Shown: positions 5,405 through 60,228, numbered from the stretch's first letter. The stretch: DNA of 64,000 bases from a bacterium (GCA_046759165.1 JBHIBS010000001.1:22304-86303), one strand, 5' to 3'. Program-made: numbers and translations. Notes: generated from the letters alone by a model not told the origin.

Positions 5405-7399
5405 TCAAAGCACACTGAGAGGATCAACGTCGACATTAATCTCTACCCCTTTCCGGCCAAATCCAGGGTAGTGCCTCTGGAAAAATTCACCAATAGACTT
5501 TATATCAGTGGTTTTGATAATAATCTGCCACCGGTATTTTCCTGCAATCTTATTTAGGACGGCCGGGCCAGGTCCCAGTATAGTGCCTTGATTAATCTCT
5601 CTTTTCAATAGAGAATTAATCTTCTCAGATGCTGCTATTACTTTTTCTTCGTCTTTTCCCTTTACCAAAATAATTACTAAGTTAGTAATGGGCGGATAGT
5701 TCAACTCTTTTCGAAATTCTATCTCCCTCTCGTAGAATGTGCGGTAATTATGCTTAAGTGCCATTTTTATGCTATAATGACCGGGATTGTAAGTCTGCAC
5801 GATAACCTCACCACCCTTGGGTCCTCGCCCGCTCCGTCCGGCGACCTGCGTAATTAGAGCGAAGGTTCTCTCTGCAGAGCGGAAATCTGGCAGATTTAAG
5901 GCTGTATCCGCTGAGATTATTCCAACCAGCGTAACATCCGGAAAATCCCACCCTTTGGCCACGAGCTGAGTACCCACCAAAATATCGACCTTTCGCTGGC
6001 GAAACGCATTAAATATTTTCTGTGCAGCGAACCTATAATGCATTGTGTCGATATCCATTCTCATAACTTTTGCTGGGGAAAACATCTTCTTCACTATCTG
6101 TTCTACTTTCTCAGTCCCAGTCCCAAAATAGCGAATTTTTCTACTGCCGCACTTAGGGCAGAATCTTGGCGCTTCATCGTGATGGTTACAATAGTGACAC
6201 TTGACCTTTTTCTCGTCAAAATGGTAGACCATGGAAACGTTACAATTTGGACATTTTAACACAAAGCCACATTCTCGACATAAGATAAAAGTGGAATATC
6301 CTCGCCGATTTAAGAAGAGGATAATCTGTTCACCTCTTTTTAGTCTCTCAGTAATGGCTTCAGAAAGTTTCAGAGAGAGGATGCCTTGATTGTTTCTCTC
6401 TCTCAGTTCTTCACGCATGTCAACTACATCTACTGAAGGAAGAGACTTCTCATATATCCTTTCCGGAAGAGTTAAAAGTCTATATGGTTTTACTCCCGTT
6501 AAGGCCCGATAGAAAGCCTCCAGAGAGGGAGTTGCTGAACCCAGGATCAGAGTTGCTCTCTCAAGCTCAGCTCTCTTCTCTGCTAATTCTCTGGTATGAT
6601 ACAGAGGTCTCTTTTCCTGCTTGTAAGAAGTATCATGTTCCTCATCAATTATTATTAGGCCCAAATTTGGGAAAGGCGCAAAAATTGCTGACCTTGGTCC
6701 AATCATTACATCTATTTTCCCCTGGTAGGCGGATTGCCAAGTTCTATATCTCTCCCCCTGGGAAAGACGACTGTGCCAGAGGCCGATTCGACTGGATCCG
6801 AATCTCTCTTCAAAAATACTCAAGAATTGTGGGGTCAATGATATTTCGGGGACCAAAAATATGGACTGTCTTCCCACCTCCTGAGCTTGAGCTATACCCT
6901 GCAGATAGACCTCTGTCTTGCCACTGTCAGTTACCCCGTGGATAAGAAATACACTAAACTTTTTCTCTTTTATACTATTTTGAATCGGCTTTAGTATTCT
7001 CTTCTGCTGTGGAGATGGTATAAAGGCGGAAAAGACCTTCGGCTCTTGTTCTTTAATCTTTCCCCTTAGTTTTACGGGCCGAAAATTGTGGGGAAGTATT
7101 GTATCCAGAGCCTGTCCGAGAGAACAGACATAATATTTGGATATCCACCTAGCCAGCTCTAATAGATGTGTAGAAATTAACGGCTCTTTATCAACGACTT
7201 CGTCAATCATTTTTAGACCTTTTAGTTCCAACTTTGTTAAGCTATCTACAATATATCCTATCCTTTCTTTGGTTCCAAAAGGTGCCATTACTCTTCTTCC
7301 TACCAGTCTTTCCGACTCGAGTTCAATCGGAAGCGAATAGTGGAAAATTCTATTAAAGGGCATAGGAAAAACAACCGACACGCATCTTTGTATAGCCAT
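5405..7399 (-). CDS. priA: Primosomal protein N' (compact form)
   Basis: GVTDSGKTEVY, LVPEISLT, IIDEEHD, two pairs of CxxC motifs, QVAGRSGR, DVDP end. Confidence 0.97.
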   Translation of the reverse strand: MAIQRCVSVVFPMPFNRIFHYSLPIELESERLVGRRVMAPFGTKERIGYIVDSLTKLELKGLKMIDEVVDKEPLISTHLLELARWISKYYVCSLGQALDTILPHNFRPVKLRGKIKEQEPKVFSAFIPSPQQKRILKPIQNSIKEKKFSVFLIHGVTDSGKTEVYLQGIAQAQEVGRQSIFLVPEISLTPQFLSIFEERFGSSRIGLWHSRLSQGERYRTWQSAYQGKIDVMIGPRSAIFAPFPNLGLIIIDEEHDTSYKQEKRPLYHTRELAEKRAELERATLILGSATPSLEAFYRALTGVKPYRLLTLPERIYEKSLPSVDVVDMREELRERNNQGILSLKLSEAITERLKRGEQIILFLNRRGYSTFILCRECGFVLKCPNCNVSMVYHFDEKKVKCHYCNHHDEAPRFCPKCGSRKIRYFGTGTEKVEQIVKKMFSPAKVMRMDIDTMHYRFAAQKIFNAFRQRKVDILVGTQLVAKGWDFPDVTLVGIISADTALNLPDFRSAERTFALITQVAGRSGRGPKGGEVIVQTYNPGHYSIKMALKHNYRTFYEREIEFRKELNYPPITNLVIILVKGKDEEKVIAASEKINSLLKREINQGTILGPGPAVLNKIAGKYRWQIIIKTTDIKSIGEFFQRHYPGFGRKGVEINVDVDPLSVL

Positions 7400-7423
7400 A
7401 AGTAGGTCTCTCCGCCCTCGATT

Positions 7424-7473
7424 TAAAGGATAGTTTGTAGAGAGCTTTTCTAATTTTAGCCAAAAAACGGAGG
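7424..7473 (+). repeat. Truncated copy of the left end of the 49751-49922 MITE-like element
   Basis: aaaggatagtttgtagagagc...aattttagccaaaaaacggagg resembles aaagatagtttgttaagagc...aattttagccgaaaaacgagg. Confidence 0.6.
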
Positions 7474-7493
7474 TTGAAGCCTGGGGCTACGTA

Positions 7494-7859
7494 TTAAAGC
7501 TTAAACTTTTCAGCCCAATCGCTTATGATTGGACACTTCCAGTAGTTCCCTTTAAGAACTTGAACGATTCCCACAAGAGACAGGAAAAAAAGAACCAAAG
7601 ATCCTCCTGCAAAAATTAGCTGGCCCACAACTGGAATCATATTTACAGCTACAAGAGCGACTTCCAGAAGAAAAATAACGAATCCTTGCTTAGCATGGAA
7701 AATGGCAAACTTGTTAACCTTCCTCGAAAATACCGGAAGCATCCTCAATGTGGAGAAATAGACAATGGGAACCAAACAGAGAATTGACAGGTAAGTTATC
7801 ACTCCAAAAATTTTCCCCTCCATAATTATCCCTTCTTCATTTCTTGGTCCCTCTGCCAC
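7494..7859 (-). CDS. Small membrane protein, DUF4870-like
   Basis: Three hydrophobic helices, FHAKQG and G.YW..PII..WAEK motifs. Confidence 0.7.
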   Translation of the reverse strand: MAEGPRNEEGIIMEGKIFGVITYLSILCLVPIVYFSTLRMLPVFSRKVNKFAIFHAKQGFVIFLLEVALVAVNMIPVVGQLIFAGGSLVLFFLSLVGIVQVLKGNYWKCPIISDWAEKFKL

Positions 7860-8589
7860 AAAAATTACCTCCCATTATCATAGCCTTCTTTATCTTCTTC
7901 ACATCTTCCCACACTTCCCTTTTTCTCGCCGGGTCTCTCAAAAGATATGCTGGATGGTAAGTGGGAATGACCTTTATAGGCTGTCCAAACCCTCCATAAG
8001 GCGGACAAAAATCGTGGAACTTACCACGAAGTTTCCCAATGCCCTCACTTAAGTTTAAAAGCGCCTTGGTAGCCGGTGAACCCAAAGTACAGATGATTTT
8101 GGGCTTGATAATTCCAATCTGTTTAAGCAAGACTGGAAGACACTGAGCTACCTCATCCTGAGTTGGCGGTCGGTCATTACCTCTCATCTCGGGGTGGGTG
8201 GGATCTCTCATTGGATGACATTTCACAATATTGGAAATGTATACTTCTTCTCTGGTCAGCGCAATCGATTCAATTATTTTGGTTAAAAGCTGTCCAGCTT
8301 TCCCCACAAAGGGAATTCCCAACCGATCTTCATCGAAACCGGGCCCCTCACCAACAAACATTAATTGAGCTTTGGAATTCCCGGCTCCGAACACCAAATT
8401 TGTCCTCGTTTTCCCTAATTTACACTTTTGACAATCCTCTACGCTCCTTGCCAAATCATCTAAGGCTTGTGATCCAGCCCTCCTTTCTTCCAGATGTTGC
8501 ACAAACTCTCTCACTCCCCTATCTCTTTCTTGCTCAAGAAACTTCCTAGTTATTGAAATTAACTCAGCAAACTCTTTGCGTCTATTCAA
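7837..8589 (-). CDS. Uracil-DNA glycosylase family 4 (Fe-S)
   Basis: CxxC, FVGEGPG..ED..G.PFVG, NIVKCHP, TYHPAYLLR. Confidence 0.93.
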   Translation of the reverse strand: MNRRKEFAELISITRKFLEQERDRGVREFVQHLEERRAGSQALDDLARSVEDCQKCKLGKTRTNLVFGAGNSKAQLMFVGEGPGFDEDRLGIPFVGKAGQLLTKIIESIALTREEVYISNIVKCHPMRDPTHPEMRGNDRPPTQDEVAQCLPVLLKQIGIIKPKIICTLGSPATKALLNLSEGIGKLRGKFHDFCPPYGGFGQPIKVIPTYHPAYLLRDPARKREVWEDVKKIKKAMIMGGNFCGRGTKK

Positions 8590-48831: not shown

Positions 48832-49188
48832 TTATTCTGTACGTTTGGCTATCTCTTTTTCAATAATTTGAATTGCTTTTTCCGCTTTTTCCCTCTCGTC
48901 AGCTACCAGAATAACTACATCGCCCTCCTTAACCCCGAAAGCCTCCTCGATGTTCCTTTTGTCTTGCTTGTTGAGACCATATTTCGGCAGTTCATCGGTA
49001 GAGATAAATCCTTTAACCCCAGTTTCTACCGCAACTTTCTTTGCCATACTATCTGTGAGTTTCTGGTCTTCAATAAGAACCCCGGCAAACCCTTCGGCCT
49101 TTATTCCCACAACGACTCCTCCTGAATCTAAGACTGCTCTTATTACATGTGAATTAGTTTCACTGACCAAATCGGTTATCTCCTTCAT
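48832..49188 (-). CDS. Stand-alone GAD domain protein resembling the GatE insertion domain
   Basis: ITDLV..T.S.VIR.....GGVV......GFAG.L...GV.G...TDELP.YG.......I...FG....D.VILVAD..EKA.KA; AGGAGG RBS. Confidence 0.72.
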   Translation of the reverse strand: MKEITDLVSETNSHVIRAVLDSGGVVVGIKAEGFAGVLIEDQKLTDSMAKKVAVETGVKGFISTDELPKYGLNKQDKRNIEEAFGVKEGDVVILVADEREKAEKAIQIIEKEIAKRTE

Positions 49189-49318: not shown

Positions 49319-49549
49319 CTAAAGCGCGGTAGAAATCAGTGTTTCCGTAGCCGAAACTCCATCGACTGCCCTAATTTTCTTAATCACCAATGAAGTCAGG
49401 GCATTTAAATCGCGAGCCTCGACAGTGGCTACAAGGTCCCACCGACCAAAGACAGCCTGAACTTTTTTGACGCCTTCTACATTTCTGATTTTAGCGAGAA
49501 CCGATTCCTCCTTTCCTGCATCCAACCTGAGTAGAACTAATCCTAACAT
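49319..49549 (-). CDS. Stand-alone Lrp/AsnC ligand-binding (RAM) domain protein
   Basis: 76 aa; L....GKE..V...I....GV......FG.WD.V...E......L......KIR...GV..T.TLI. Confidence 0.85.
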   Translation of the reverse strand: MLGLVLLRLDAGKEESVLAKIRNVEGVKKVQAVFGRWDLVATVEARDLNALTSLVIKKIRAVDGVSATETLISTAL

Positions 49550-49937: not shown

Positions 49938-50960
49938 CTACGATTTCGTTTCTCGTAAAAGTTCTGCCATTACCTCCGAGGAGAGTGGCTCGATATAGAA
50001 ACCAGAACTCCAAGCGAAACCCTCAACCTTCACAATATGGGGAAGTATTTCTAAATGCCAGTGGTAATCCTTATGTATTGTCCTCCAGTAACCTGCCTTT
50101 GGCCGCATGTAAGGTATGGAATGGATCATATAGTTGAGCGGTGGATCATCCAGCAGTTTACAAATCTTGCTTAAAGTCACCTTGATGATAGCTGCAAAAT
50201 CGAAAAGTGTATTATCCTCTTCCTGAGTAAAAGTTGCATTATGGATTTTTGGGAGTATCCAGGTTTCAAAAGGAAGACGTGGAGCAAATGGCACATAGGA
50301 GATGAAAGATTTGTTCTCCTCAACTATTCTCAGACCCGAATCCAACTCCTCTCTAACCACATCACAGAAAACACAACGGTCCTTCTCTTCGTAGTAACTT
50401 TTGGCATTTTCCAATTCGTCTTTTACGCTCTGGGGAGTAAGGGGCAGGGCAACCAACTGGGAGTGAGTGTGTCCCAATCGGAAGGGAGAACTTGGTCTTT
50501 GATTCTTGAAAACTATAGCGTATCTGAAACGCTTATCGCCTTTCAAATCGATAATTCTTCTCTGATAAACCATAAGGGCTTTCTTTATCTGTTCAGCAGG
50601 CAAATCGCTTAAGTTCTTAATGTGTTCAGGACTTTCGATTATTAACTCGTGTGCTCCCACGTTATTCATCGCATCATATACGCCCACACCACGTCTCTCC
50701 AGCCCCTTCTCTACTTCAAGTGCCTTCTCTTTGCTGGGAAAGACTCTCACACTCCAACCCGGTTCATCCGGTAGAGTACCAGGTTTTCTCAAAGCATAGA
50801 TTTCTTTAGGTGTCTCCTTCTCATTTCCCGGGCAGAAAGGACAAGGCCTCTCTTTGACCCTTACTCGGGGCTCCAAAGATTCGAAAAATTCCTCTTTTTC
50901 CTTAGTGTTTGTAATGATCCAGCATCCTGAAATTATATCTTTTCTCAATTCAGCGCACAT
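49938..50960 (-). CDS. GalT-like HIT-superfamily nucleotidyltransferase, divergent (copy 1)
   Basis: ELRKD..SG.W, CPFC, GAHE.IIE, HTHSQ, CVFCD, ETWILP..H, YHWH.EI. Confidence 0.85.
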   Translation of the reverse strand: MCAELRKDIISGCWIITNTKEKEEFFESLEPRVRVKERPCPFCPGNEKETPKEIYALRKPGTLPDEPGWSVRVFPSKEKALEVEKGLERRGVGVYDAMNNVGAHELIIESPEHIKNLSDLPAEQIKKALMVYQRRIIDLKGDKRFRYAIVFKNQRPSSPFRLGHTHSQLVALPLTPQSVKDELENAKSYYEEKDRCVFCDVVREELDSGLRIVEENKSFISYVPFAPRLPFETWILPKIHNATFTQEEDNTLFDFAAIIKVTLSKICKLLDDPPLNYMIHSIPYMRPKAGYWRTIHKDYHWHLEILPHIVKVEGFAWSSGFYIEPLSSEVMAELLRETKS

Positions 50961-52735
50961 CTTTTTCTCTCTAAAGTCTTAATTAGTTCTTTGTACGAAA
51001 GAGTGTTCAATAGATCTCTTCTTTCAAGCCAGCCTCTCCGAGCAACTGCAACTCCCAAGTAGAGATTCTCTATCTGATTCAGGGTGTGAGCATCTGTTCC
51101 GATTCCGATAAGGATACCCAGCTCTTTTGCCTTCCTGCAATAGATATCATATAGATCAAGCCTTTCGGGATAGGCATTGATCTCTAAGAAAGTCTGTGTT
51201 TTCTTAGCAGTCTTTAAAACCTTCTCCATATTTAGTGCATACGGTTCCCTCTTCCCCAACAGCCGGCCTTGCGGATGGGCAATCATATGGATATATCTGT
51301 TCTCCATTGCAGAAATTATCCTTTCCGTTAGCTGCTCCTCCGACTGTTTGAATCCGGTGTGAATGGCAGCAATAACCAGATCGAGTTGAGATAGGAGCTT
51401 ATCGTCATAATCTAAGGATCCATCCGAGAAGATATCGACTTCCATACCGCAGAGAACTTTAAAGTACTTGCTTTTCTTATTAAATTTTTTTGTCTCTTCG
51501 ATCTTCTCGTAGACTACATCGGGGGCAAGACCTCCCGCAACTTTTAGTGATTGGGAATGGTCACAAATTCCCACCCACTCCAGCCCTATGCCTTTTGCCT
51601 TTTCTGCAATTTCTGAGAGTTTGCTTGCCCCATCGCTATAACGGGAATGAACGTGCAGGTCACCCCTTATATCCTTCCCTTTAATAAGTCGAGGAATCCT
51701 ACTTCCTAAAGCCAACTCAATTTCTCCCGAGGCCTCTCTTATCTCTGCTGGAATATACTGAAGTCCCAATTTCTTATAGACCTCTTCCTCGGTCCTACCG
51801 GCAACCCTTGTTTCTCTCACCGATGCTGCCGCACCAGCTCCCTTCCCCCGACTGGACACTCCACCCGACCTCTTTCCTAACTTAAAGAGACCATATTCGT
51901 TTATCTTATACCCCTTTTTTCGAGCCAATTCGCGAAGAGCAATATTATGGTCTTTAGAACCAGTAAAATACATCAAGGCAGCTCCATAAGATTCTGGCTT
52001 AATCACCCTTAGATCAACCTGTATGTCCTCCTCGAGAATTACGCTCGATTTCGTCTCCCCCTGAGCCAGTATTTCCTTCACCTGAGGAAGACTCACAAAC
52101 TTTCTCATTACTACATCAGACTTCTTTGCCGTACATAAAATATCTATATCTTTGATGGTCTCCTTTTTTCTCCGAATGCTACCAGCCAGATCTATATCTT
52201 TAATGCCAGGACACTTTTTCAATTCCTCTATGACTGGCCTTGCCAAAAATAGTGCTGAGGACAGAAGAATCCTCTCGCCGCCTTTTCTCATCATTTGAAT
52301 GCCTCGTAGGATATTCTCCTGGGCCTTCTCACCCAAACGGCGAAGCTCGCTCAAACGGTGCTCTTTAGCCGCTTTTTCAAGTTGGGCAAGGCTCTTTATT
52401 CCTAACTCATCATATAGAGTTTTTGCTGTTTTGGGCCCTATCCCTGGAACAGAGAGCATTTCTAGAACTCCTTCAGGAAAACCCTTTTTTAAATCGTCAA
52501 AATATTTTAATTTACCTGTTTCCAAATATTCCTTAATCTTCTTTGCTATCCCCTCTCCTATACCAGGAATGGTTTCCAGCCTATCTTGATTTAGAAATTT
52601 TTCAATCGGGGCAGTGAGACTAGCAATATTTTGAGCTGCTTTCTCATAGGACCGTACTCTGAAAGGGTTCTCCCCTTTCAATTCTAAGAGCTGTCCGATT
52701 TCCTGGAGCAATTTGACCACTTCTCTATTTTTCAT
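50945..52735 (-). CDS. polX: DNA polymerase X with PHP domain
   Basis: GENPFR..SY, HhH motifs, AGSIRR..ETI.DID, VDLR, YFTGSK.HN, NEYG; PHP DLHVHS..SDG, DHS, GTDAH. Confidence 0.97.
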   Translation of the reverse strand: MKNREVVKLLQEIGQLLELKGENPFRVRSYEKAAQNIASLTAPIEKFLNQDRLETIPGIGEGIAKKIKEYLETGKLKYFDDLKKGFPEGVLEMLSVPGIGPKTAKTLYDELGIKSLAQLEKAAKEHRLSELRRLGEKAQENILRGIQMMRKGGERILLSSALFLARPVIEELKKCPGIKDIDLAGSIRRKKETIKDIDILCTAKKSDVVMRKFVSLPQVKEILAQGETKSSVILEEDIQVDLRVIKPESYGAALMYFTGSKDHNIALRELARKKGYKINEYGLFKLGKRSGGVSSRGKGAGAAASVRETRVAGRTEEEVYKKLGLQYIPAEIREASGEIELALGSRIPRLIKGKDIRGDLHVHSRYSDGASKLSEIAEKAKGIGLEWVGICDHSQSLKVAGGLAPDVVYEKIEETKKFNKKSKYFKVLCGMEVDIFSDGSLDYDDKLLSQLDLVIAAIHTGFKQSEEQLTERIISAMENRYIHMIAHPQGRLLGKREPYALNMEKVLKTAKKTQTFLEINAYPERLDLYDIYCRKAKELGILIGIGTDAHTLNQIENLYLGVAVARRGWLERRDLLNTLSYKELIKTLERKRCALN

Positions 52736-52742
52736 TTCCCAT

Positions 52743-53777
52743 TTACTCCCCTTCCACCTCCCTCAAGAACCTCGCCGCTGCCTCTGGAACGGGTGGATTA
52801 ATATAGAAATCGCCGCCCCACTCGAAGCCCCTAGCGGGCATAGCATGGGGCAGAATCTCAATGTGCCAGTGGTAGTCCTCTTTAATAGTTAACCAGAATC
52901 CTGCCTCAGGAACCATGAAGGGAGCAGTATGAAGAACAAAATTCAAAGGAGGATCTTTCAATAACTTGACGGTTTTCATAATAGTCGATTTCAATTCTCC
53001 TGCCAACTCCCAGAGATCCTCTTCAGACACATTTGTAAAATCGCATTCGTGCTTTCTGGGAAGAATTTGGGTTTCAAATGGAAAGCGGGAGGCAAAAGGA
53101 GCCAAAATGATAAATTTATCTCCAGCACTAACGATCCTCTCACGAGAATATAATTCTTGTTTAGTTATGTCACAGAAGATACACCTTTCTTTCTCTTCAT
53201 AGTAACTTTTAGCTGAAGATAATTCGTCCTTAATGCTTTTGGGAATCACGGGCAGAGCGATTATCTGGGAATGGACATGTAGCATAGAAATCTCTTTACT
53301 ATAACCCTGATTACGGAAGACGAGACCATATTTCAGAAGGGAATTCTTTTTCAACTCCCTCAACCTCATCTGATAAACCAGGAGAACTTTCTGTACCTGC
53401 TCAAGGGGAAGGGCCGAAATATGTGTTATGTGAAGAGGAGATTCAATTACAATCTCATGGGCCCCGTATCCATTCATCGTATCAAAAAAGAAGAAGTCAC
53501 CCACCCCTTTCCTTTCCAGCTCCTCATTGAGCCCCACCACTCCAAATCTACTGGGAATTACACGCACCTTCCATCCTGGAGTATCGGGCTTACTCTCCTC
53601 CTTACGGAGAGCAAAGAGTTCTGGCGGAGTTTCCAGTTCTCTCCCTTCGCAAAAAGGACAGTCTCCCTCCCTCTCTTCTTTGCGGACAGTGATGAAACCA
53701 AATGGTGTGTCCACATCCTTCCTCGTAGCAGTAATCATCCATCTTCCAGAGATGGGATCTTTCCTCAGTTTTGACAT
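52743..53777 (-). CDS. GalT-like HIT-superfamily nucleotidyltransferase, divergent (copy 2)
   Basis: LRKDPISGRW, CPFC, GAHE..IE, HVHSQ, CIFCD, YHWH.EI, GFEWG..FYINP..PE.AA..LR. Confidence 0.87.
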   Translation of the reverse strand: MSKLRKDPISGRWMITATRKDVDTPFGFITVRKEEREGDCPFCEGRELETPPELFALRKEESKPDTPGWKVRVIPSRFGVVGLNEELERKGVGDFFFFDTMNGYGAHEIVIESPLHITHISALPLEQVQKVLLVYQMRLRELKKNSLLKYGLVFRNQGYSKEISMLHVHSQIIALPVIPKSIKDELSSAKSYYEEKERCIFCDITKQELYSRERIVSAGDKFIILAPFASRFPFETQILPRKHECDFTNVSEEDLWELAGELKSTIMKTVKLLKDPPLNFVLHTAPFMVPEAGFWLTIKEDYHWHIEILPHAMPARGFEWGGDFYINPPVPEAAARFLREVEGE

Positions 53778-53818: not shown

Positions 53819-54622
53819 CTACTTCACGATAATGCCTGCGTATCCCACAACCGCGGAGTAATCCCCTGAGGCTTCTGCACTGGTATTGTACAATACCAGT
53901 TCACTCTTCTTTGCTCCCAGCTCTTTACAGGCAAAAATCATTGTAGCCGTTGGTGCTGGGCCGCACATCGAAATATCTTTCTCTATTACTGTTTTCAGTA
54001 AACCTTCTGGATCGAGTTTTAAGATTTTATCAATTGCCAACTTGTCTTTTCTTTCAGCATCTTTTTGGGACTCATAATGGGTCATATCCGACGAAGCAAC
54101 AATTAGACAAGGAGCTTTGGATTCAACTACCTTGGCTATCGCCTTACCCAATTCTCTACAGCTGGAGACTCGATTGTCTCGCATACAGATGGGGACGATG
54201 GTGAAACCAGCCTTGAAATACTGAATAAATGGGAGCTGGACCTCCAGCGAGTGCTCGTGTAGATGAGCCTCTTCATCCTGCCGGGCTAAATCACCAGCTT
54301 CTGAGAGTAACTCTTTTGCCAAGGAAGAATTTATTTCTACTCTGCCATTTGGCATTTCCCACTCGCCGTCTGCCATTATAGCAACCTCTGCACCAATACC
54401 AGTATGGTTGGGCCCAATAATGATGATAGTATCGGGTAAGTTAATCTTAGAATAGACTGCTCCAGCCACTTTTCCTGAATAGAAATAACCTGCGTGGGGA
54501 ACCACTATTCCCAAAACGTCCTCTCTCTCAATATCTCTCCTGAGATATTTCTCAACCTGTTCTCTTAGTGCTTCTGGGTCTCTCATATAGAACCTACCTG
54601 CTTGCGCTGGTTTTCTGATCAT
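53819..54622 (-). CDS. AmmeMemoRadiSam protein B / MEMO1 family
   Basis: R.PA.AG.FY, PHAGY.YSG, GPNH, EHS.EVQLPF, ASSD.THY, SMCG, VVGY. Confidence 0.93.
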   Translation of the reverse strand: MIRKPAQAGRFYMRDPEALREQVEKYLRRDIEREDVLGIVVPHAGYFYSGKVAGAVYSKINLPDTIIIIGPNHTGIGAEVAIMADGEWEMPNGRVEINSSLAKELLSEAGDLARQDEEAHLHEHSLEVQLPFIQYFKAGFTIVPICMRDNRVSSCRELGKAIAKVVESKAPCLIVASSDMTHYESQKDAERKDKLAIDKILKLDPEGLLKTVIEKDISMCGPAPTATMIFACKELGAKKSELVLYNTSAEASGDYSAVVGYAGIIVK

Positions 54623-54813: not shown

Positions 54814-55548
54814 CTAGTCTATTATGTTCCCTTTTTGGGACTTACTAGTCAAAGCTTGCACTGTCTCTAAATGTGCCAACCTTAAAGGTTCGGGAATCTT
54901 TTCCCTCCTGCAACAAGTCAGGATAATATCCAATGCCTGATCCAGGGCGATCCTGTACCCCTGAGAAACGAATACGGGCTTGACATTTCTCTTAGTGCGG
55001 AGAGCCACCCCTATCAGCTCTCCCCTCTCGTCTTTCAAAAAAGTATGAGCTCCTTTCAAATTTACAGGCTCCTCGTAATGGCCGTATAGAATTGATTTGC
55101 CACAGCCAATTGTGGCGAGCCCCAGCAAAAGACCCATGTGACTGGCCAGACCAAACCTCACAGGATGCGCAATTCCCTGACCATCGAAAATGACTATATC
55201 AGGAGATCTTTCCAATCTTTTTAAGGCAGCTATTAGAACAGGACCCTCGCGAAAGGTGAGCAACCCGGGAAGGTAAGGAAATATTCTCTCAGAGGCTTGC
55301 ATAACTCCCCTTTTTTCCACCAGTTCCAGCTCAGGGAAAGTAAGCAAAACTACACTACCATAAACCTTTCTCCTTTTCTCATCATAGCCAACGTCACAAC
55401 CGGCGATAAAGCGTATTTGACTTATGGACCTAAATGGACTTCTTAATACAACTTTATCTCTTAACTTCTGCTGGATTTTTCTGGCCTTCTCAGGAGATAC
55501 TTGCCAGGAATGAAGACTCTTAACTTTCATCTGTTTTAAATTTAGCAA
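54814..55548 (-). CDS. nfi: Endonuclease V
   Basis: AGCDV.Y, FPYLPGLL.FRE, DGQG.AHP..FGLASH, P.FVS.G, PEPLR.AH. Confidence 0.95.
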   Translation of the reverse strand: MLNLKQMKVKSLHSWQVSPEKARKIQQKLRDKVVLRSPFRSISQIRFIAGCDVGYDEKRRKVYGSVVLLTFPELELVEKRGVMQASERIFPYLPGLLTFREGPVLIAALKRLERSPDIVIFDGQGIAHPVRFGLASHMGLLLGLATIGCGKSILYGHYEEPVNLKGAHTFLKDERGELIGVALRTKRNVKPVFVSQGYRIALDQALDIILTCCRREKIPEPLRLAHLETVQALTSKSQKGNIID

Positions 55549-55576: not shown

Positions 55577-56488
55577 TTATTGCCAAAAGTCCTGTCTCCA
55601 GCCTCTTTCCAGCCCCAATTCATCCGCCATCTTCAACACTGCATCATATTCTCTTTTAGAGATCCTTCTTGATAGTTCTGGAAATTCAAAAGCTAGGTGG
55701 GCAGGGTGGTACTGAGCCATAATGCTCATATAAGTATTTTTGGAAATATTCTTGGCAATGAACTCTAAGACGCTTCGAGAACCAGCTATGTCTTCCGGCA
55801 TAACTAAGTGGCGAATAAGGAGTCCCCACTTCGCAATCCCGTCTCTATCCATTTTCAGGTCACCTACTTGACGATGCATTTCCAGAAGCGCCTTCCTATT
55901 GACTTCAAAATAGTCGGCTGCCCTGGAGTATGTCCGGGCACTTTCGGGATTAGAATACTTGGCATCAGGCATATAAATATCCACTATACCCTCCAGAAGT
56001 TCGAGAGTCTCCACGGAATCGTACCCTCCCGAGTTGTATACAAGAGGAATCTTTAAGCCCTCTCTTACTGCAAGGTCTAAGGCCTCAACGATTTGGGGAA
56101 CAAAATGCGTAGGGGTAACAAAATTTATGTTGTGTGCTCCGAGCTTTTGTAACTTTACCATCATTGTAGCCAGCTCGGAAATCTCCACTTCCTGGCCGTT
56201 TCCCAGCTGGCTGATAGGATAATTCTGGCAGAAACAACAGCGAAGGTTACACTGAGTAAAGAAGATGGTGCCCGAACCACGATAACCCGAAATTGGCGGC
56301 TCTTCACCGAAATGGAGGTTATAACTAGAAACAACTACTCTTGTGCCCGCTCCGCAAAAACCTTTCTCATCTTGCACCCGATTTACCAGGCATTTCCTGG
56401 GACAGAGGTGACACCTCTCAAGTAATTTATTAAGCTCTTCCTTTCTCTTTTTTAAGATACCTCTCTCATAAAGTTCAACGTAACTCAT
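55577..56488 (-). CDS. PflX-like radical SAM protein
   Basis: C.LCPR.C...R.....GFC, H.GEE..ISG..GSGTIFF..CNL.C.FCQN, NIN.VTP, Y.PD.KY, IRHLV.P. Confidence 0.9.
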   Translation of the reverse strand: MSYVELYERGILKKRKEELNKLLERCHLCPRKCLVNRVQDEKGFCGAGTRVVVSSYNLHFGEEPPISGYRGSGTIFFTQCNLRCCFCQNYPISQLGNGQEVEISELATMMVKLQKLGAHNINFVTPTHFVPQIVEALDLAVREGLKIPLVYNSGGYDSVETLELLEGIVDIYMPDAKYSNPESARTYSRAADYFEVNRKALLEMHRQVGDLKMDRDGIAKWGLLIRHLVMPEDIAGSRSVLEFIAKNISKNTYMSIMAQYHPAHLAFEFPELSRRISKREYDAVLKMADELGLERGWRQDFWQ

Positions 56489-57038: not shown

Positions 57039-57845
57039 CTATTTCTGGCACCTCGGGCAAAAATTAGTTCCCCTGCCAGCAAGTTTAATAAACTTCAATT
57101 GGGTCTTACATTTAACACAGGGCTCACCTCTCCGCCCATAGACTCGGAGGCGAGAATGGAAACTGCCTCTTCTTCCTTCTGCATCAACATAACTACTTAA
57201 GGATGATCCCCTGTAATCTATAGCTTCCCATAAGACCTTCTTTATTTCAGAAAATAGTGACCTCACCTCATCCGGCTTCAGCCGGTGAGCTTGCCTTTCT
57301 GGATGAATTCCTGCCTTGAACAGCGCCTCTTGAGCATAAACATTTCCTATGCCAGCCAAGAACTCCTGAGCCATCAATAGAGCTTTGATCTTAGCTTTCT
57401 TTTTACTTAACATTTCACCAAAAACTTTGAGCGTAAAATTCTCCTCCAGAGGCTCCATCCCAATCTTGGCAATGCCTGGAGCTTTCTCCCAGTTTTCTAC
57501 CAATCTGATTTCTCCTAGATGCCTCCTGTCATTAAGGTTCAAATGTTTGCCATCTGACAGGAGAAAGGATACCCTGTTCTTTGCATCCCTCTTTCCGTAA
57601 ATCAGTTGCCCGGCCATTCTGAGATGTACTACTATCTTCTTCCCGGAGGATAATACTAAAATTAAGTACTTGCCTCGACGAATAACGTCTTTAAAAATTT
57701 TCCCTTCTACTTCTTCCTTAAATCCCTTCGGGGAAGGTTCTTTCACCATCTTAGCTGTGTTTATTTCCACTCTTTTCACTTTCTTTCCCAAAATTCTTTT
57801 TTCCAGCCCTCTTCTTATTGTTTCTACTTCTGGCAATTCAGGCAT
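57039..57845 (-). CDS. mutM: Formamidopyrimidine-DNA glycosylase
   Basis: MPELPEVE, RRGKY, HLRM.G, GIGN.Y..E, C-terminal zinc finger GRGT.FCP.CQ. Confidence 0.97.
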   Translation of the reverse strand: MPELPEVETIRRGLEKRILGKKVKRVEINTAKMVKEPSPKGFKEEVEGKIFKDVIRRGKYLILVLSSGKKIVVHLRMAGQLIYGKRDAKNRVSFLLSDGKHLNLNDRRHLGEIRLVENWEKAPGIAKIGMEPLEENFTLKVFGEMLSKKKAKIKALLMAQEFLAGIGNVYAQEALFKAGIHPERQAHRLKPDEVRSLFSEIKKVLWEAIDYRGSSLSSYVDAEGRRGSFHSRLRVYGRRGEPCVKCKTQLKFIKLAGRGTNFCPRCQK

Positions 57846-57862
57846 TTCTGTCCTCATAAGGT

Positions 57863-58807
57863 TCATTTTTTTTCTAATTTTTCCTTCTGGACTTCCAGAT
57901 GTTTGCCATAGTATTTAGAGAATCTATGAGTGCCTTCTCCTTTAGCAACAAAGAACATCAAATCGGTCTCGGCTGGATACAAGGCCGCCTTAATAGAGGC
58001 CAGACCAGGATTGCAAATAGGCCCCGGTGGTAGACCAAAATGGTTATAAGTATTATAAGGAGAGTCGACTTTCAAATCTTCGTAGGTCAACTTCTCCTTA
58101 TGATCTCCCAGCGCGTATTGAACCGTAGCACAAGATTCTAAATACCACCGCTTCCTTAACCGATTATGGAAAACGGCAGAAATTAGCGGCCTCTCTTCAT
58201 TCCTGACAGCCTCTTTCTCGATTATGGAAGCCAAGATTACTGTATCGCTTTTTGTGAACTTAAACTTCTTCCCTCTATCTTCCATCTCTTTTGTAAACAC
58301 CTCATTGAATTGGTCGACCATCATACCAATAATTTCTTCTTCTGAAGTATCATAATCAACAAAATATGTTTCCGGAAAAAGATAGCCCTCCAGTCTCCTC
58401 TGTTCAACAATCTGTAAAAACCTATCTTTTCTTCCCAATCCCTTCTGCTCAATTAACTGGGCAATCTGAGGGGCAGTAAATCCCTCCGGAACGGTCAACT
58501 TTACTATCTTGCTTTTTCCTGAAACGAGTTTGTCGATAATTCGCCAAGTCCCTTTTTTTGAATCTATTTCGTAGACTCCCGCTTTAATTCTTCTATGCAC
58601 CCCTTTTAGTCTAAGAAGAAACAGAAAGTAACTCTTACTGGGAATTAAACCTTCCCTCTCAAGTAATTCCGCTACTCCTCTAGCAGTCATTCTCTGTTCT
58701 ATTATTACCAAGGAAGTTTTAGAGGGGCGATGGGACGAAATGAAGAGCACTAAAATTCCCAAAATCAGCAAGCACAGGGTTACAACGCCTATTCTTACTA
58801 TTCTCAT
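57863..58807 (-). CDS. mltG: Endolytic murein transglycosylase
   Basis: T.PEG, LEGYLFPETY, LASIIEKE, VF.NRL, SPYNTY...GLPPGPI.NPG. Confidence 0.95.
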   Translation of the reverse strand: MRIVRIGVVTLCLLILGILVLFISSHRPSKTSLVIIEQRMTARGVAELLEREGLIPSKSYFLFLLRLKGVHRRIKAGVYEIDSKKGTWRIIDKLVSGKSKIVKLTVPEGFTAPQIAQLIEQKGLGRKDRFLQIVEQRRLEGYLFPETYFVDYDTSEEEIIGMMVDQFNEVFTKEMEDRGKKFKFTKSDTVILASIIEKEAVRNEERPLISAVFHNRLRKRWYLESCATVQYALGDHKEKLTYEDLKVDSPYNTYNHFGLPPGPICNPGLASIKAALYPAETDLMFFVAKGEGTHRFSKYYGKHLEVQKEKLEKK

Positions 58808-59250
58808 TTATTACTCTCTCGACTTTTCTCTTTTTGACCCCATCCAATACTGTCCAAATAGTTTTGCAAAATTATACAGGCAGAGACTTTGTCCAAACTA
58901 TCCTTCCGTTTTTTCCTTGATAACCTTGCCTGTCGAAGCACCTTCTCTGCACTAACAGTTGTTAACCTTTCATCCCAGGTTACTATGGGTACCCTTATCA
59001 CCTTTTCCAGAACTTTCACAAAAGCCAAAACCTCTTTCCCCTTACCGCCCAATGAACCGTTCATATTTCTAGGTAAACCAATAACAATCTTCTCAATCTT
59101 ATTCTGGCCGACAATTGCTTTTATGTCCCCAAGCCAACTACGAGTTCCATTTCTCTTTAAAACTTTCAGACTCCGAGCAACCATATTTGAAGGGTCACTC
59201 AGTGCCACCCCAATTCTTTTCTCTCCATAATCGATCCCTAAAATTTTCAT
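58804..59250 (-). CDS. ruvX: YqgF/RuvX pre-16S rRNA nuclease
   Basis: LGIDYG.KRIGVA.SD, GLP, DERLTT, D..SA..IL. Confidence 0.95.
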   Translation of the reverse strand: MKILGIDYGEKRIGVALSDPSNMVARSLKVLKRNGTRSWLGDIKAIVGQNKIEKIVIGLPRNMNGSLGGKGKEVLAFVKVLEKVIRVPIVTWDERLTTVSAEKVLRQARLSRKKRKDSLDKVSACIILQNYLDSIGWGQKEKSRESNK

Positions 59251-59667: not shown

Positions 59668-60228
59668 TTATCCTTTCAGGTTTACTTCTTCTATTATGCT
59701 GTAAGTGGGACCTCTGGAACTTAGCTGGCTCTCCATAACCAGCACCTTGTCCACAGAAAATTCGCCCACATCACTACTTTCCATTTCCTCGATTTTCTTA
59801 ACCAATTTCTCCTTTCCCCTCGGAGACCTCACCCTGCCAATCGTCAAATGGACAGAAAACTCTCTCTTCTCTTTGGCAAATCCCAAATAGGAAAGATTTT
59901 CTTCAATGTTCTTATTTAAATTTTTCAGTTCCTCCTTCCCTTCACTTACCCCAATCCAGACTACCCGTGGAGATTTAAGGTTGGGAAAGCTACCTAACTC
60001 AGAAAGGTGAACCCTGAAATTGGAAATCCTTGTCACTGCAAGTCTTGTCTTTTCAATCACTGCCGGGAGTTTGTCCTCATTTACCTCACCCAGAAATTTT
60101 AGAGTAATGTGGAGATTTTCAGGCTCAACCCATTTGACATCCGGATCTCCTTTCCTGAACTCCCCCTGAATTTGAGCAATCCTTTCCCTCACTTCACTGG
60201 ATATTCCCACAGCAATAAAAGTTCTCAT
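59668..60228 (-). CDS. thpR: RNA 2',3'-cyclic phosphodiesterase (2H family)
   Basis: MRTFIA, HITL.FLG, PRVVW.G, HLTIGR, S.L...GP.Y. Confidence 0.93.
   Translation of the reverse strand: MRTFIAVGISSEVRERIAQIQGEFRKGDPDVKWVEPENLHITLKFLGEVNEDKLPAVIEKTRLAVTRISNFRVHLSELGSFPNLKSPRVVWIGVSEGKEELKNLNKNIEENLSYLGFAKEKREFSVHLTIGRVRSPRGKEKLVKKIEEMESSDVGEFSVDKVLVMESQLSSRGPTYSIIEEVNLKG

Follow-up and report, generated by a model that had tools for sequence, protein, structure and literature searches.

Two genes for proteins of the galactose-1-phosphate uridylyltransferase (GalT) family, part of the HIT superfamily, enclose the gene for the DNA polymerase/3'-5' exonuclease PolX at positions 49938-53777 of a 64,000-nucleotide stretch of bacterial DNA (GCA_046759165.1 JBHIBS010000001.1:22304-86303). 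We refer to the whole stretch as the window and give all coordinates in its numbering; every gene of the block lies on the minus strand. Judged from sequence, the two GalT-like proteins represent a divergent subfamily that is rare, occurs in a few bacterial lineages and is apparently new. Our preferred reading, with a probability of roughly 0.5, is that they are nucleotidyl-transferring HIT enzymes with an altered, probably non-hexose substrate, and that they are tied to a neighbourhood of genes for Memo-family and radical SAM proteins.

In the mechanism that we propose, the histidine of the HxHxQ motif, braced by zinc, would attack the alpha-phosphate of a nucleoside-diphosphate-X compound. 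A covalent histidine-nucleoside monophosphate (His-NMP) intermediate would form and the NMP would be passed to an acceptor, as the conserved residues suggest. The leaving group or acceptor would probably not be hexose-1-phosphate, because the contacts for that group have been replaced in conserved, subtype-specific ways. The substrate would instead be a nucleotide-linked, non-sugar compound tied to the Memo and radical SAM genes. The home of the subfamily would be a neighbourhood of the order radical SAM, Memo, GalT and, further downstream, a GAD-domain gene, into which polX would have been inserted later, directly after one GalT subtype, in some lineages; cooperation with PolX would be possible but secondary. 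Where both copies co-occur, homodimers and a heterodimer of the two could both form.

An original prediction, made from this DNA alone, had read the arrangement as a candidate module for removing nucleotides from DNA ends. Its description of the genes was accurate. Copy 2 (galT2-type, 344 amino acids, 52743-53777) is followed after a 7-nucleotide gap (52736-52742) by polX (596 amino acids, 50945-52735), whose stop lies in a 16-nucleotide overlap (50945-50960) with copy 1 (galT1-type, 340 amino acids, 49938-50960). The middle gene is indeed a full-length PolX, scoring 551.4 bits against NCBIfam NF006375 (cut-off 426) and matching the Pfam domains HHH_8, DNA_pol_B_thumb and PHP, that is, a Pol-beta-like core with a PHP domain. 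Its sequence contains the strings GS.RR...D.D, VDLR and HVH...DG, which we take to be the polymerase and PHP metal-site motifs.

Copies 1 and 2 keep the catalytic residues of GalT and replace the hexose-1-phosphate contacts

The two copies are 49% identical to each other. Their matches to the Pfam GalT N- and C-terminal domains are weak, and both score below the cut-offs of the NCBIfam models TIGR00209 for galT (89.5 and 86.3 bits; cut-off 102.1) and NF008724 (101.6 and 91.1 bits; cut-off 448). Their best full-length relatives among solved structures are 1Z84 and 2H39 (E-values of 3.7e-63 for copy 2 and 4.3e-57 for copy 1), followed by the archaeal GalT 6K5Z (7.5e-31 and 4.7e-27) and then by the E. 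coli and human GalTs, 1HXP (1.2e-13 and 8.9e-16). According to a 2026 preprint, the protein in 1Z84 is the ADP-glucose phosphorylase At5g18200 of Arabidopsis, a class I GalT-type HIT enzyme that forms homodimers, has its active sites between the subunits and carries zinc on the first histidine of the motif. On these similarities we assign copies 1 and 2 to the ADP-glucose phosphorylase (At5g18200, PDB 1Z84) branch of the class I GalT/HIT enzymes.

The copies were aligned with E. coli GalT, from the annotated K-12 record, and with a canonical third copy from the same genome. The HxHxQ motifs, HVHSQ in copy 2 and HTHSQ in copy 1, fall on E. coli H164-P-H166-G-Q168. The zinc ligands C52, C55, H115 and H164 (E. 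coli numbering throughout) are present in both copies and in all orthologues, and both copies retain the nucleophile H166 as well as Q168. Relative to E. coli GalT, copy 2 has R28K, R31T, N77S, Y156 and G159E, and retains S161 and the GFE motif. Copy 1, in which the acceptor site and hexose pocket appear more strongly remodelled on what is predicted to be the same fold, has R28E, R31E, P32F, N77S, G155R, G159P and S161R, and its GFE motif has become GFA. The Glu of GFE falls on E. coli Glu317 in one alignment and one position away in another. The motifs quoted in the original prediction are all present (HVHSQ/HTHSQ, CPFC with CIFC/CVFC, TRKDVD/TKEKEE, PSRFG/PSKEK, SKEISML/SSPFRLG and GFA), and the alignment with E. 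coli GalT, a check that it had named, bears out the loss of RxxRP, of the Asn and of the G-S loop beside the retained HxHxQ and zinc motifs.

The roles of these residues are taken from GalT rather than from At5g18200. The structure paper on human GALT (PMC5081055) states that Arg28, Arg31, Gly159 and Ser161 of E. coli GalT contact the glucose-1-phosphate part of UDP-glucose, and that in human GALT Arg48 (E. coli R28) and the Tyr339-Glu340 segment are on the chain opposite Gln188. At these contact positions (R28, R31, G159, S161 and the Y316-E317 segment), the states are K, T, E, S and GFE in copy 2, and E, E, P, R and GFA in copy 1. By alignment, the residues replaced in the copies are those predicted to bind the hexose-1-phosphate portion of the substrate, several of them from across the dimer interface.

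These states are stable. The 40 relatives scanned included members of the window's own family (f1), another family of the same order (f2) and G011, from the same class and a different family. The altered positions are identical in all orthologues of the window's family and nearly identical in G011; since the same states recur in family and class-level orthologues, neither chance nor sequencing error explains them. Over the whole subfamily, 16 of 17 galT1-type and 14 of 14 galT2-type proteins retain C52, C55, H115, H164 and H166, while Q168 is replaced by His in the galT1-type protein of genome G430 and in copy 2 of G011. R28/R31 are lost in 17 of 17 galT1-type rows, both are lost in 13 of 14 galT2-type rows, and 15 of the 17 galT1-type rows carry S161R. 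In galT1-type proteins linked to PolX the GFE motif reads GFA or GFS, whereas a PolX-free galT1-type lineage keeps GFE.

Pairwise ratios of nonsynonymous to synonymous substitution (dN/dS) within the family were 0.065-0.144 for copy 1 and 0.057-0.12 for copy 2 (10 pairs each), compared with 0.052-0.123 for the third copy (6 pairs) and 0.063-0.149 for polX (3 pairs). Both copies are thus under purifying selection, which points to changed function and not to decay. A pseudogene origin was rejected on these values (0.057-0.144) and on the subtype signatures kept across lineages. Because the nucleophile His, the zinc ligands and the Gln are kept under purifying selection, the copies are catalytically plausible HIT/GalT enzymes. 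The median isoelectric point is 6.0-7.0 in all groups, with no basic shift of the kind that might suggest binding to DNA.

A canonical third paralogue adjoins glgA

The genome from which the window derives (1.89 Mb in 165 contigs, 92% complete) contains a third, canonical paralogue (copy 3) on contig C8 (L034:7807-10309), which is 44-46% identical to copies 1 and 2. It lies between dnaE and glgA (Glyco_transf_5 glycogen/starch synthase), directly upstream of the latter, and keeps R28, R31, P32, N77, G155, G159, S161 and GFE together with C52, C55, H115, H164, H166 and Q168. Genes of the copy-3 type also adjoin glgA in G011, G194, G281, G425, G427 and G430, and the locus of this type was beside glgA in the four genomes fetched from the G281 lineage. 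The glgA-linked copies were canonical in 8 of 8 cases, one with T at position 161. The set that they have in common (RxxRP, N77-K78 and G155..G159.S161) is absent from copies 1 and 2, and there is no glgA near these two. Genes of the canonical type adjoin GlgA genes in many phyla (also at loci L016, L018, L020, L022, L036 and L264-L267), or are fused to GlgA or GH57.

No galactokinase, the Leloir kinase, was found in the 92%-complete genome (TIGR00131 had no match). The replaced hexose-1-phosphate contacts uphold the claim that sugar-phosphate motifs have been lost. For glgC there were seven weak matches, none on the window's contig, the best at 93.7 bits against a cut-off of 424.9. The statement that galK, galE and glycogen genes are missing from the window stood for galK, which was not found anywhere in the genome, and is in keeping with glgA lying on contig C8 and with all glgC-like matches lying off the window's contig; it stands without a check for galE, glgB and glgP, which were not searched. 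Going by motifs and gene order, the ADP-glucose-related job is most likely left to the third paralogue beside glgA. The canonical enzyme, run in reverse, could possibly supply or recycle ADP-glucose for glycogen synthase, and its tie to glgA points to an under-studied partner of that enzyme.

The copies form a rare clade within a variable family

In a FastTree phylogeny of 183 rows, copies 1 and 2 fell into a 12-row clade (support 99), apart from tandem GalT pairs and from the glgA-linked copies. A quick IQ-TREE run on 48 rows, for which only SH-aLRT support was calculated and E. coli GalT served as a long-branched outgroup, recovered a 16-row clade (99) consisting of eight galT1-type rows (95) and eight galT2-type rows (85), with all glgA-linked copies outside it. 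The trees place copies 1 and 2 as sister subtypes of one rare clade. A search of 1.84 billion representative sequences with copy 1 gave 6030 matches at E<=0.001 and no full-length representative more than 50% identical to copy 1.

Elsewhere in the family, departures from the canonical motifs are frequent. A motif census covered 136 representatives of 280-400 amino acids (14 others were dropped by length): 72 of these were canonical (both Arg, N77, S/T at 161 and H166) and 64 deviated, 29 having neither Arg (2 only through N-terminal gaps) and 17 lacking the nucleophile His. Losses in the motifs are thus widespread in the family. Of the best 150 representatives, some are fused to GlgA (P0033), GH57 (P0076, P0131) or a second GalT module (P0001, P0007), and 13 longer relatives carried GH57 (5), a GlgA-type synthase (6), a methyltransferase (1) or no extra named domain (1). 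No fusion to PolX occurred among the best 150 representatives or the 13 longer relatives, a blank that is weak evidence in the latter set. P0001 (599 amino acids) and P0007 (871 amino acids) each combine two GalT-like modules in one polypeptide and are in effect covalent pseudo-dimers of the dimeric fold.

Adjacent GalT pairs also occur without PolX, in Omnitrophota and Planctomycetota. The upstream member keeps RRP and has N77S, mostly R or K at position 161 and, in 9 of 11 rows, H166R. In its downstream partner RxxRP is gone (KGP, NGP and similar), but N77, K78, G155, G159, S161, H166 and Q168 remain. Because the losses are complementary and residues in GalT act across subunits, we infer that each such pair may form a heterodimer with one complete active site, and paralogue pairs with complementary motif losses would more generally predict single-site heterodimers. 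The pairs (loci L049, L050, L051, L055, L056, L061, L068, L073, L078, L092 and L097, at about 5995-8085 in most, and further L130, L131, L134, L143, L145 and L189) sit in a block of the order priA-def-fmt-[pair]-gap-pgk-tpiA-secG. Among the neighbours at 18 such loci were a downstream GAPDH gene (15), fmt (14), priA (12), pgk (9), tpiA (9) and secG (8), so the surroundings belong to central metabolism and not to repair. An origin of copies 1 and 2 from these pairs was ruled out, as the copies form their own clade apart from both members. The idea that the motif losses are specific to repair-linked galT genes was largely refuted, given that loss of RxxRP, N77S and S161R/K recur in the PolX-free pairs and that 64 of 136 representatives deviate.

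Memo, radical SAM and GAD genes surround the clade

The gene order in the window is radical SAM, endonuclease V, Memo, copy 2, PolX, copy 1, an AsnC-type protein, GAD, nitroreductase and SBP_bac_5. The activase-like radical SAM enzyme (55577-56488, minus strand; Pfam Radical_SAM, 40.4 bits) and endonuclease V (54814-55548, minus strand; Pfam Endonuclease_5, 221 bits) precede a Memo-family protein of the AmmeMemoRadiSam system protein B type (53819-54622, minus strand), which scores 315.9 bits against TIGR04336 (cut-off 26) and 247.8 bits against Pfam Memo and has a weak Pfam LigB match (21 bits, below cut-off). Between copy 1 and the GAD gene lies a stand-alone Lrp/AsnC ligand-binding (RAM) domain protein of 76 amino acids (49319-49549, minus strand; Pfam AsnC_trans_reg, 54.5 bits), and the GAD-domain protein is itself stand-alone (118 amino acids, 48832-49188, minus strand; Pfam GAD, 40.6 bits).

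Much of this block recurs in two further genomes. In G194, a Memo-AMMECR1 fusion, radical SAM, Memo, galT2-type, PolX, GAD, MFS and SBP_bac_5 genes are tightly packed on one strand; the fusion (L207:10647-12158) immediately precedes the radical SAM-Memo-GalT block. In G281, the order is radical SAM, Memo, galT1-type, MarC, YjeF_N (presumably an NAD(P)HX epimerase domain) and GAD. The flanking genes of the window, G194 and G281 are orthologous, at identities of 57-60% for radical SAM, 45-52% for Memo and 42-61% for GAD. Orthologues of GAD are found in G011, G194 and G281 (42-61% identical), as stand-alone proteins of 118-169 amino acids (window 48832-49188; L035:4541-4897; L207:5641-5997; L227:4639-5148). 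Elsewhere, the GAD domain is familiar as an insertion within GatE and AspRS.

Memo is the clade's steadiest upstream neighbour, present in f1, in G194 and in all eight genomes examined from the G281 lineage. This lineage, comprising the G281 family (7 of 7 genomes) and G430, has a single galT1-type gene with Memo directly upstream. GAD is also downstream in G429, and the flanks available for the lineage's other members end too soon to reveal it. In the 98%-complete genome of G281 no PolX exceeds the family cut-off, and no PolX was found within the 1.5-kb flanks of the galT1-type gene in any of the eight genomes. Endonuclease V stands between radical SAM and Memo in the window, whereas in G194 and G281 radical SAM is directly followed by Memo. 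The clade's common denominator is therefore Memo and radical SAM upstream and GAD downstream, with polX found only directly after galT2-type genes; endonuclease V, MarC and YjeF_N are lineage-specific inserts, as the AsnC-type gene probably is too. No sugar-metabolism gene was found in the conserved block of the window, G194 or G281. Memo, radical SAM and GAD, the more constant neighbours, had escaped the original prediction.

Balaji and Aravind (PMC2034487) describe a persistent neighbourhood of AMMECR1, radical SAM and ring-opening dioxygenase genes, with AMMECR1-dioxygenase fusions, and propose for it an uncharacterised RNA base modification. We read this ring-opening dioxygenase, on sequence grounds, as probably the Memo family. 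We found no paper on a GalT/HIT member of the Memo/AMMECR1 neighbourhood in a search that did not extend to supplements, and the supplement of PMC2034487 may list members.

The distribution of subtypes also bears on how the copies might pair. Besides its galT2-type gene, G194 carries one copy linked to glgA and another that is very divergent, with no galT1-type gene, and the G281 lineage has only the galT1-type. That each subtype occurs without the other argues against both an obligate heterodimer and dependence on PolX. The proposed heterodimer is thus possible where both copies co-occur, and the obligate form is weakened.

Upstream of the block, the window has further nucleic-acid repair and processing genes on the same strand: besides endonuclease V (54814-55548) there is Fpg/MutM (57039-57866), both recognised by Pfam. 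An open reading frame (ORF) of 148 amino acids (58804-59250) looks RuvX/YqgF-like to us, and one of 186 amino acids with two H.T motifs (59668-60228) looks like a 2H phosphoesterase. Every ORF of at least 100 amino acids with a family match between 43 and 60 kb is on the minus strand. Endonuclease V, Fpg and the other upstream repair genes are not kept beside the clade in G011, G194 or G281.

The linkage to polX is narrow

Both copies are present in all eight other f1 species, with polX between them where the contigs allow; in one genome the copies are on separate contigs, and one contig ends inside copy 1. The galT-polX-galT order also occurs in two metagenome contigs and in G011, where copy 2, polX (4-nucleotide overlap) and copy 1 are followed by the GAD gene and the upstream genes differ. 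Two f2 genomes have neither polX nor the clade (one of them, G009, is 98% complete). The galT2-type gene directly precedes polX in three lineages: with a 7-nucleotide gap in the window (lineage f1), a 4-nucleotide overlap in G011 and a 20-nucleotide gap in G194. Between the window and G194, the distance has thus stayed within 20 nucleotides at 51-55% protein identity.

Beyond these lineages the association is scarce. We examined the best 80 of 595 confirmed loci in a genome collection and the best 80 of 593 loci in a metagenome collection, with adjacency counts that are lower bounds. In the former, polX was adjacent at 2 of 80 loci, both belonging to family members of 88-90% identity, with glgA within 6 kb at 22 and directly adjacent tandem GalT pairs at 13. 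The metagenome loci gave 2 of 80 with adjacent polX, again family members, 24 with glgA nearby and 6 tandem pairs. A broader sample of 401 genomes contained PolX matches in 217 (E<=1e-20) and GalT-family matches to the clade profile in 244 (E<=1e-15). Among the roughly 150 matches listed per search, polX and GalT genes were adjacent in one genome outside the home lineage, G194, and four genomes had them on one contig at least 30 kb apart. The 5-kb flanks of the 20 closest outside PolX genes among the matches listed held a GalT-like gene once, in G194. At 12 loci of high-scoring outside GalT matches, glgA was adjacent in 6, and G281 had Memo and GAD instead.

The proposed galT-polX-galT synteny therefore holds in the eight other f1 species, the two metagenome contigs and G011, and is narrow: 1 of the 20 closest outside PolX loci listed, and 2 of the best 80 loci in each collection, the last four all from the same family. 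A complex prediction for PolX with copy 2 scored 0.00 against a mark of 0.32, from alignments of five rows each and with controls not run, a score that bears on binding in neither direction. We found no paper that joins PolX with galactose-1-phosphate uridylyltransferase.

Weighing the explanations

Several observations weigh against a non-hexose substrate tied to the Memo/radical SAM genes. The family at large is tied to alpha-glucan metabolism, with glgA within 5-6 kb at 22 and 24 of the best 80 loci of each collection; because this tie is seen both in adjacency and in GlgA and GH57 fusions, a changed sugar-nucleotide specificity is the simpler reading. The window's radical SAM protein reaches only 19.4 bits against TIGR04337 (cut-off 220). 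The only AMMECR1 (PF01871) match in the genome is at C30:6179-6679, within a frame of 505 amino acids and outside the window locus, although the length of this frame is consistent with the same Memo-AMMECR1 fusion. G011 has no Memo gene upstream within its 10.4-kb contig, and Rnf and MoeA genes are there instead. Some clade members deviate, P0009 having Y at the nucleophile position and G430 having N77/F155/Y161/H168, and P0038 and P0083 differ as well. The PolX-bearing lineages may not be independent either: we infer that the block moved between lineages, since the PolX of G194 is 54-56% identical to that of the window, as opposed to 43-44% in G025 and G345, which are among the closest relatives of G194. 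None of the 25 closest relatives of G194 has a family member at E<=1e-60. Such a transfer fits a selected unit. The case as a whole is built from motifs and gene context.

The explanation that survives best beside our own, though we consider it unlikely, is that the copies remain sugar-nucleotide enzymes, for instance NDP-sugar phosphorylases or transferases that take another sugar or nucleotide, and that polX came to lie between them through a neutral, lineage-specific ordering of genes in a compact genome. Adjacency and fusion tie the whole family to glgA, GH57 and glycolysis genes, motif-variant pairs without PolX are common (13 and 6 of the best 80 loci in the two collections, with 64 of 136 representatives non-canonical), linkage to PolX is seen in no more than two or three related blocks, and nearly all genes in the region share one strand. 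Yet the residues replaced are the very ones that bind the sugar phosphate, including the hexose-pocket Glu in the PolX-linked copy 1, and the conserved block has no sugar-metabolism gene in any lineage. Neutral gene order usually decays at a protein divergence of this level, and the galT2-type gene has stayed within 20 nucleotides of polX between the window and G194, at 51-55% identity.

An extension of our preferred reading, a non-hexose HIT enzyme tied to Memo and radical SAM genes, is a long shot: the clade would be a new class of HIT nucleotidyl transferases whose target is nucleic acid and not sugar. The galT2-type enzyme would take off or transfer a nucleotidyl group at a DNA or RNA end, or at a modified nucleotide that the Memo/radical SAM(/AMMECR1) genes make or repair, and where its gene is followed by polX it would pass the cleaned end to PolX. 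If true, this would give bacteria a first counterpart of aprataxin-like end de-adenylylation and open the Memo/AMMECR1/radical SAM system to biochemistry for the first time.

We regard as slightly less probable still, and doubtful, the function originally proposed for the pair: removal, alone or as a heterodimer, of 5'-AMP from abortive ligation products or nucleotidylated DNA or RNA ends before gap filling by PolX, as an analogue of aprataxin in bacteria. The direct succession of galT2-type and polX in three lineages, the 16-nucleotide overlap of copy 1 with the polX stop and the joint absence of polX and the clade from the f2 genomes would suit this function. So would the hexose pocket, which is most degraded in the PolX-linked copy 1 (GFA/GFS, as opposed to GFE in the PolX-free lineage), and the His-NMP chemistry shared with aprataxin, a member of the HIT superfamily. 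Endonuclease V and Fpg lie nearby in the window, but outside the conserved block. Against it, all eight genomes of the G281 lineage have a galT1-type gene with no PolX beside it, G281 having no PolX at all, and 19 of the 20 closest outside PolX genes among the matches listed have no GalT neighbour. The 150 representatives and 13 long relatives include no PolX fusion, a Pfam scan at E<=0.01 returned only GalT-type and DUF4921/DUF4931 models and no aprataxin-type domain or zinc finger, and the proteins show no basic charge shift. The narrow PolX link and the PolX-free galT1-type genes weaken the DNA-end function. Our literature searches returned no relevant paper on aprataxin, adenylated DNA or PolX in bacteria, nor on galT, glgA, ADP-glucose and HIT. 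Narrow as it is, the link to PolX suggests a concrete hypothesis of how nucleotidylated ends might be handled in bacteria that have no aprataxin.

Least probable is a role as Apa1/Apa2-like phosphorylases of dinucleoside polyphosphates (Ap4A-type) or other nucleotides, tuning a nucleotide signal or removing a damaged nucleotide: within the HIT superfamily, the Ap4A phosphorylases share the GalT branch with the copies, the acceptor phosphate site is remodelled and not deleted, with new Arg155 and Arg161 in the galT1-type, and a YjeF_N gene is part of the G281 block, but copies 1 and 2 have no Ap4A phosphorylase Pfam match (only copy 3 has one, below threshold at 22.4 bits) and their closest solved relatives are At5g18200 and the class I GalTs, not Apa2.

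Should the preferred reading of a non-hexose substrate prove true, a sugar-nucleotide enzyme fold would have been repurposed at least once for a non-sugar substrate, its core kept and its acceptor pocket rebuilt. A HIT enzyme with a testable covalent intermediate would then be a way into the Memo/radical SAM/AMMECR1 system, for which no function is known from bacteria to humans.

Comparison with known systems

The Ap4A phosphorylases Apa1/Apa2 have HxHxQ and belong to the same GalT branch; they differ in being monomeric with an auxiliary domain, and copies 1 and 2 miss their Pfam models. Aprataxin is a HIT superfamily member as well, but from a different branch; neither its domain nor any DNA-binding element was identified in the copies, and their link to DNA is adjacency to polX only. 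The aprataxin mechanism involves a covalent His-AMP intermediate.

With E. coli and human GalT (EC 2.7.7.12), the copies have C52, C55, H115, H164, H166 and Q168 in common, at an identity of only 22-25%. Both differ from GalT at R28, R31, N77 and G159, and copy 1 also at S161 and Glu317. The GalT active site is built from two chains, as PMC5081055 reports. At5g18200 (1Z84, 2H39) is the best solved relative over the full length, with HxHxQ, the CxxC zinc motif and a second CxxC aligned and a dimeric fold. It has ARAKRP, ENLYPA and GASAGASMSHSHSQ, whereas the two Arg, the Asn and the GxS loop are all missing from copies 1 and 2; nor do they lie beside glgA, unlike copy 3.

The AmmeMemoRadiSam system differs from the window in that the radical SAM protein of the window falls below the TIGR04337 cut-off and AMMECR1 is on another contig. 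It is matched by the TIGR04336-type Memo gene directly upstream of copy 2, by the radical SAM gene beside Memo and, in G194, by the Memo-AMMECR1 fusion within the block.

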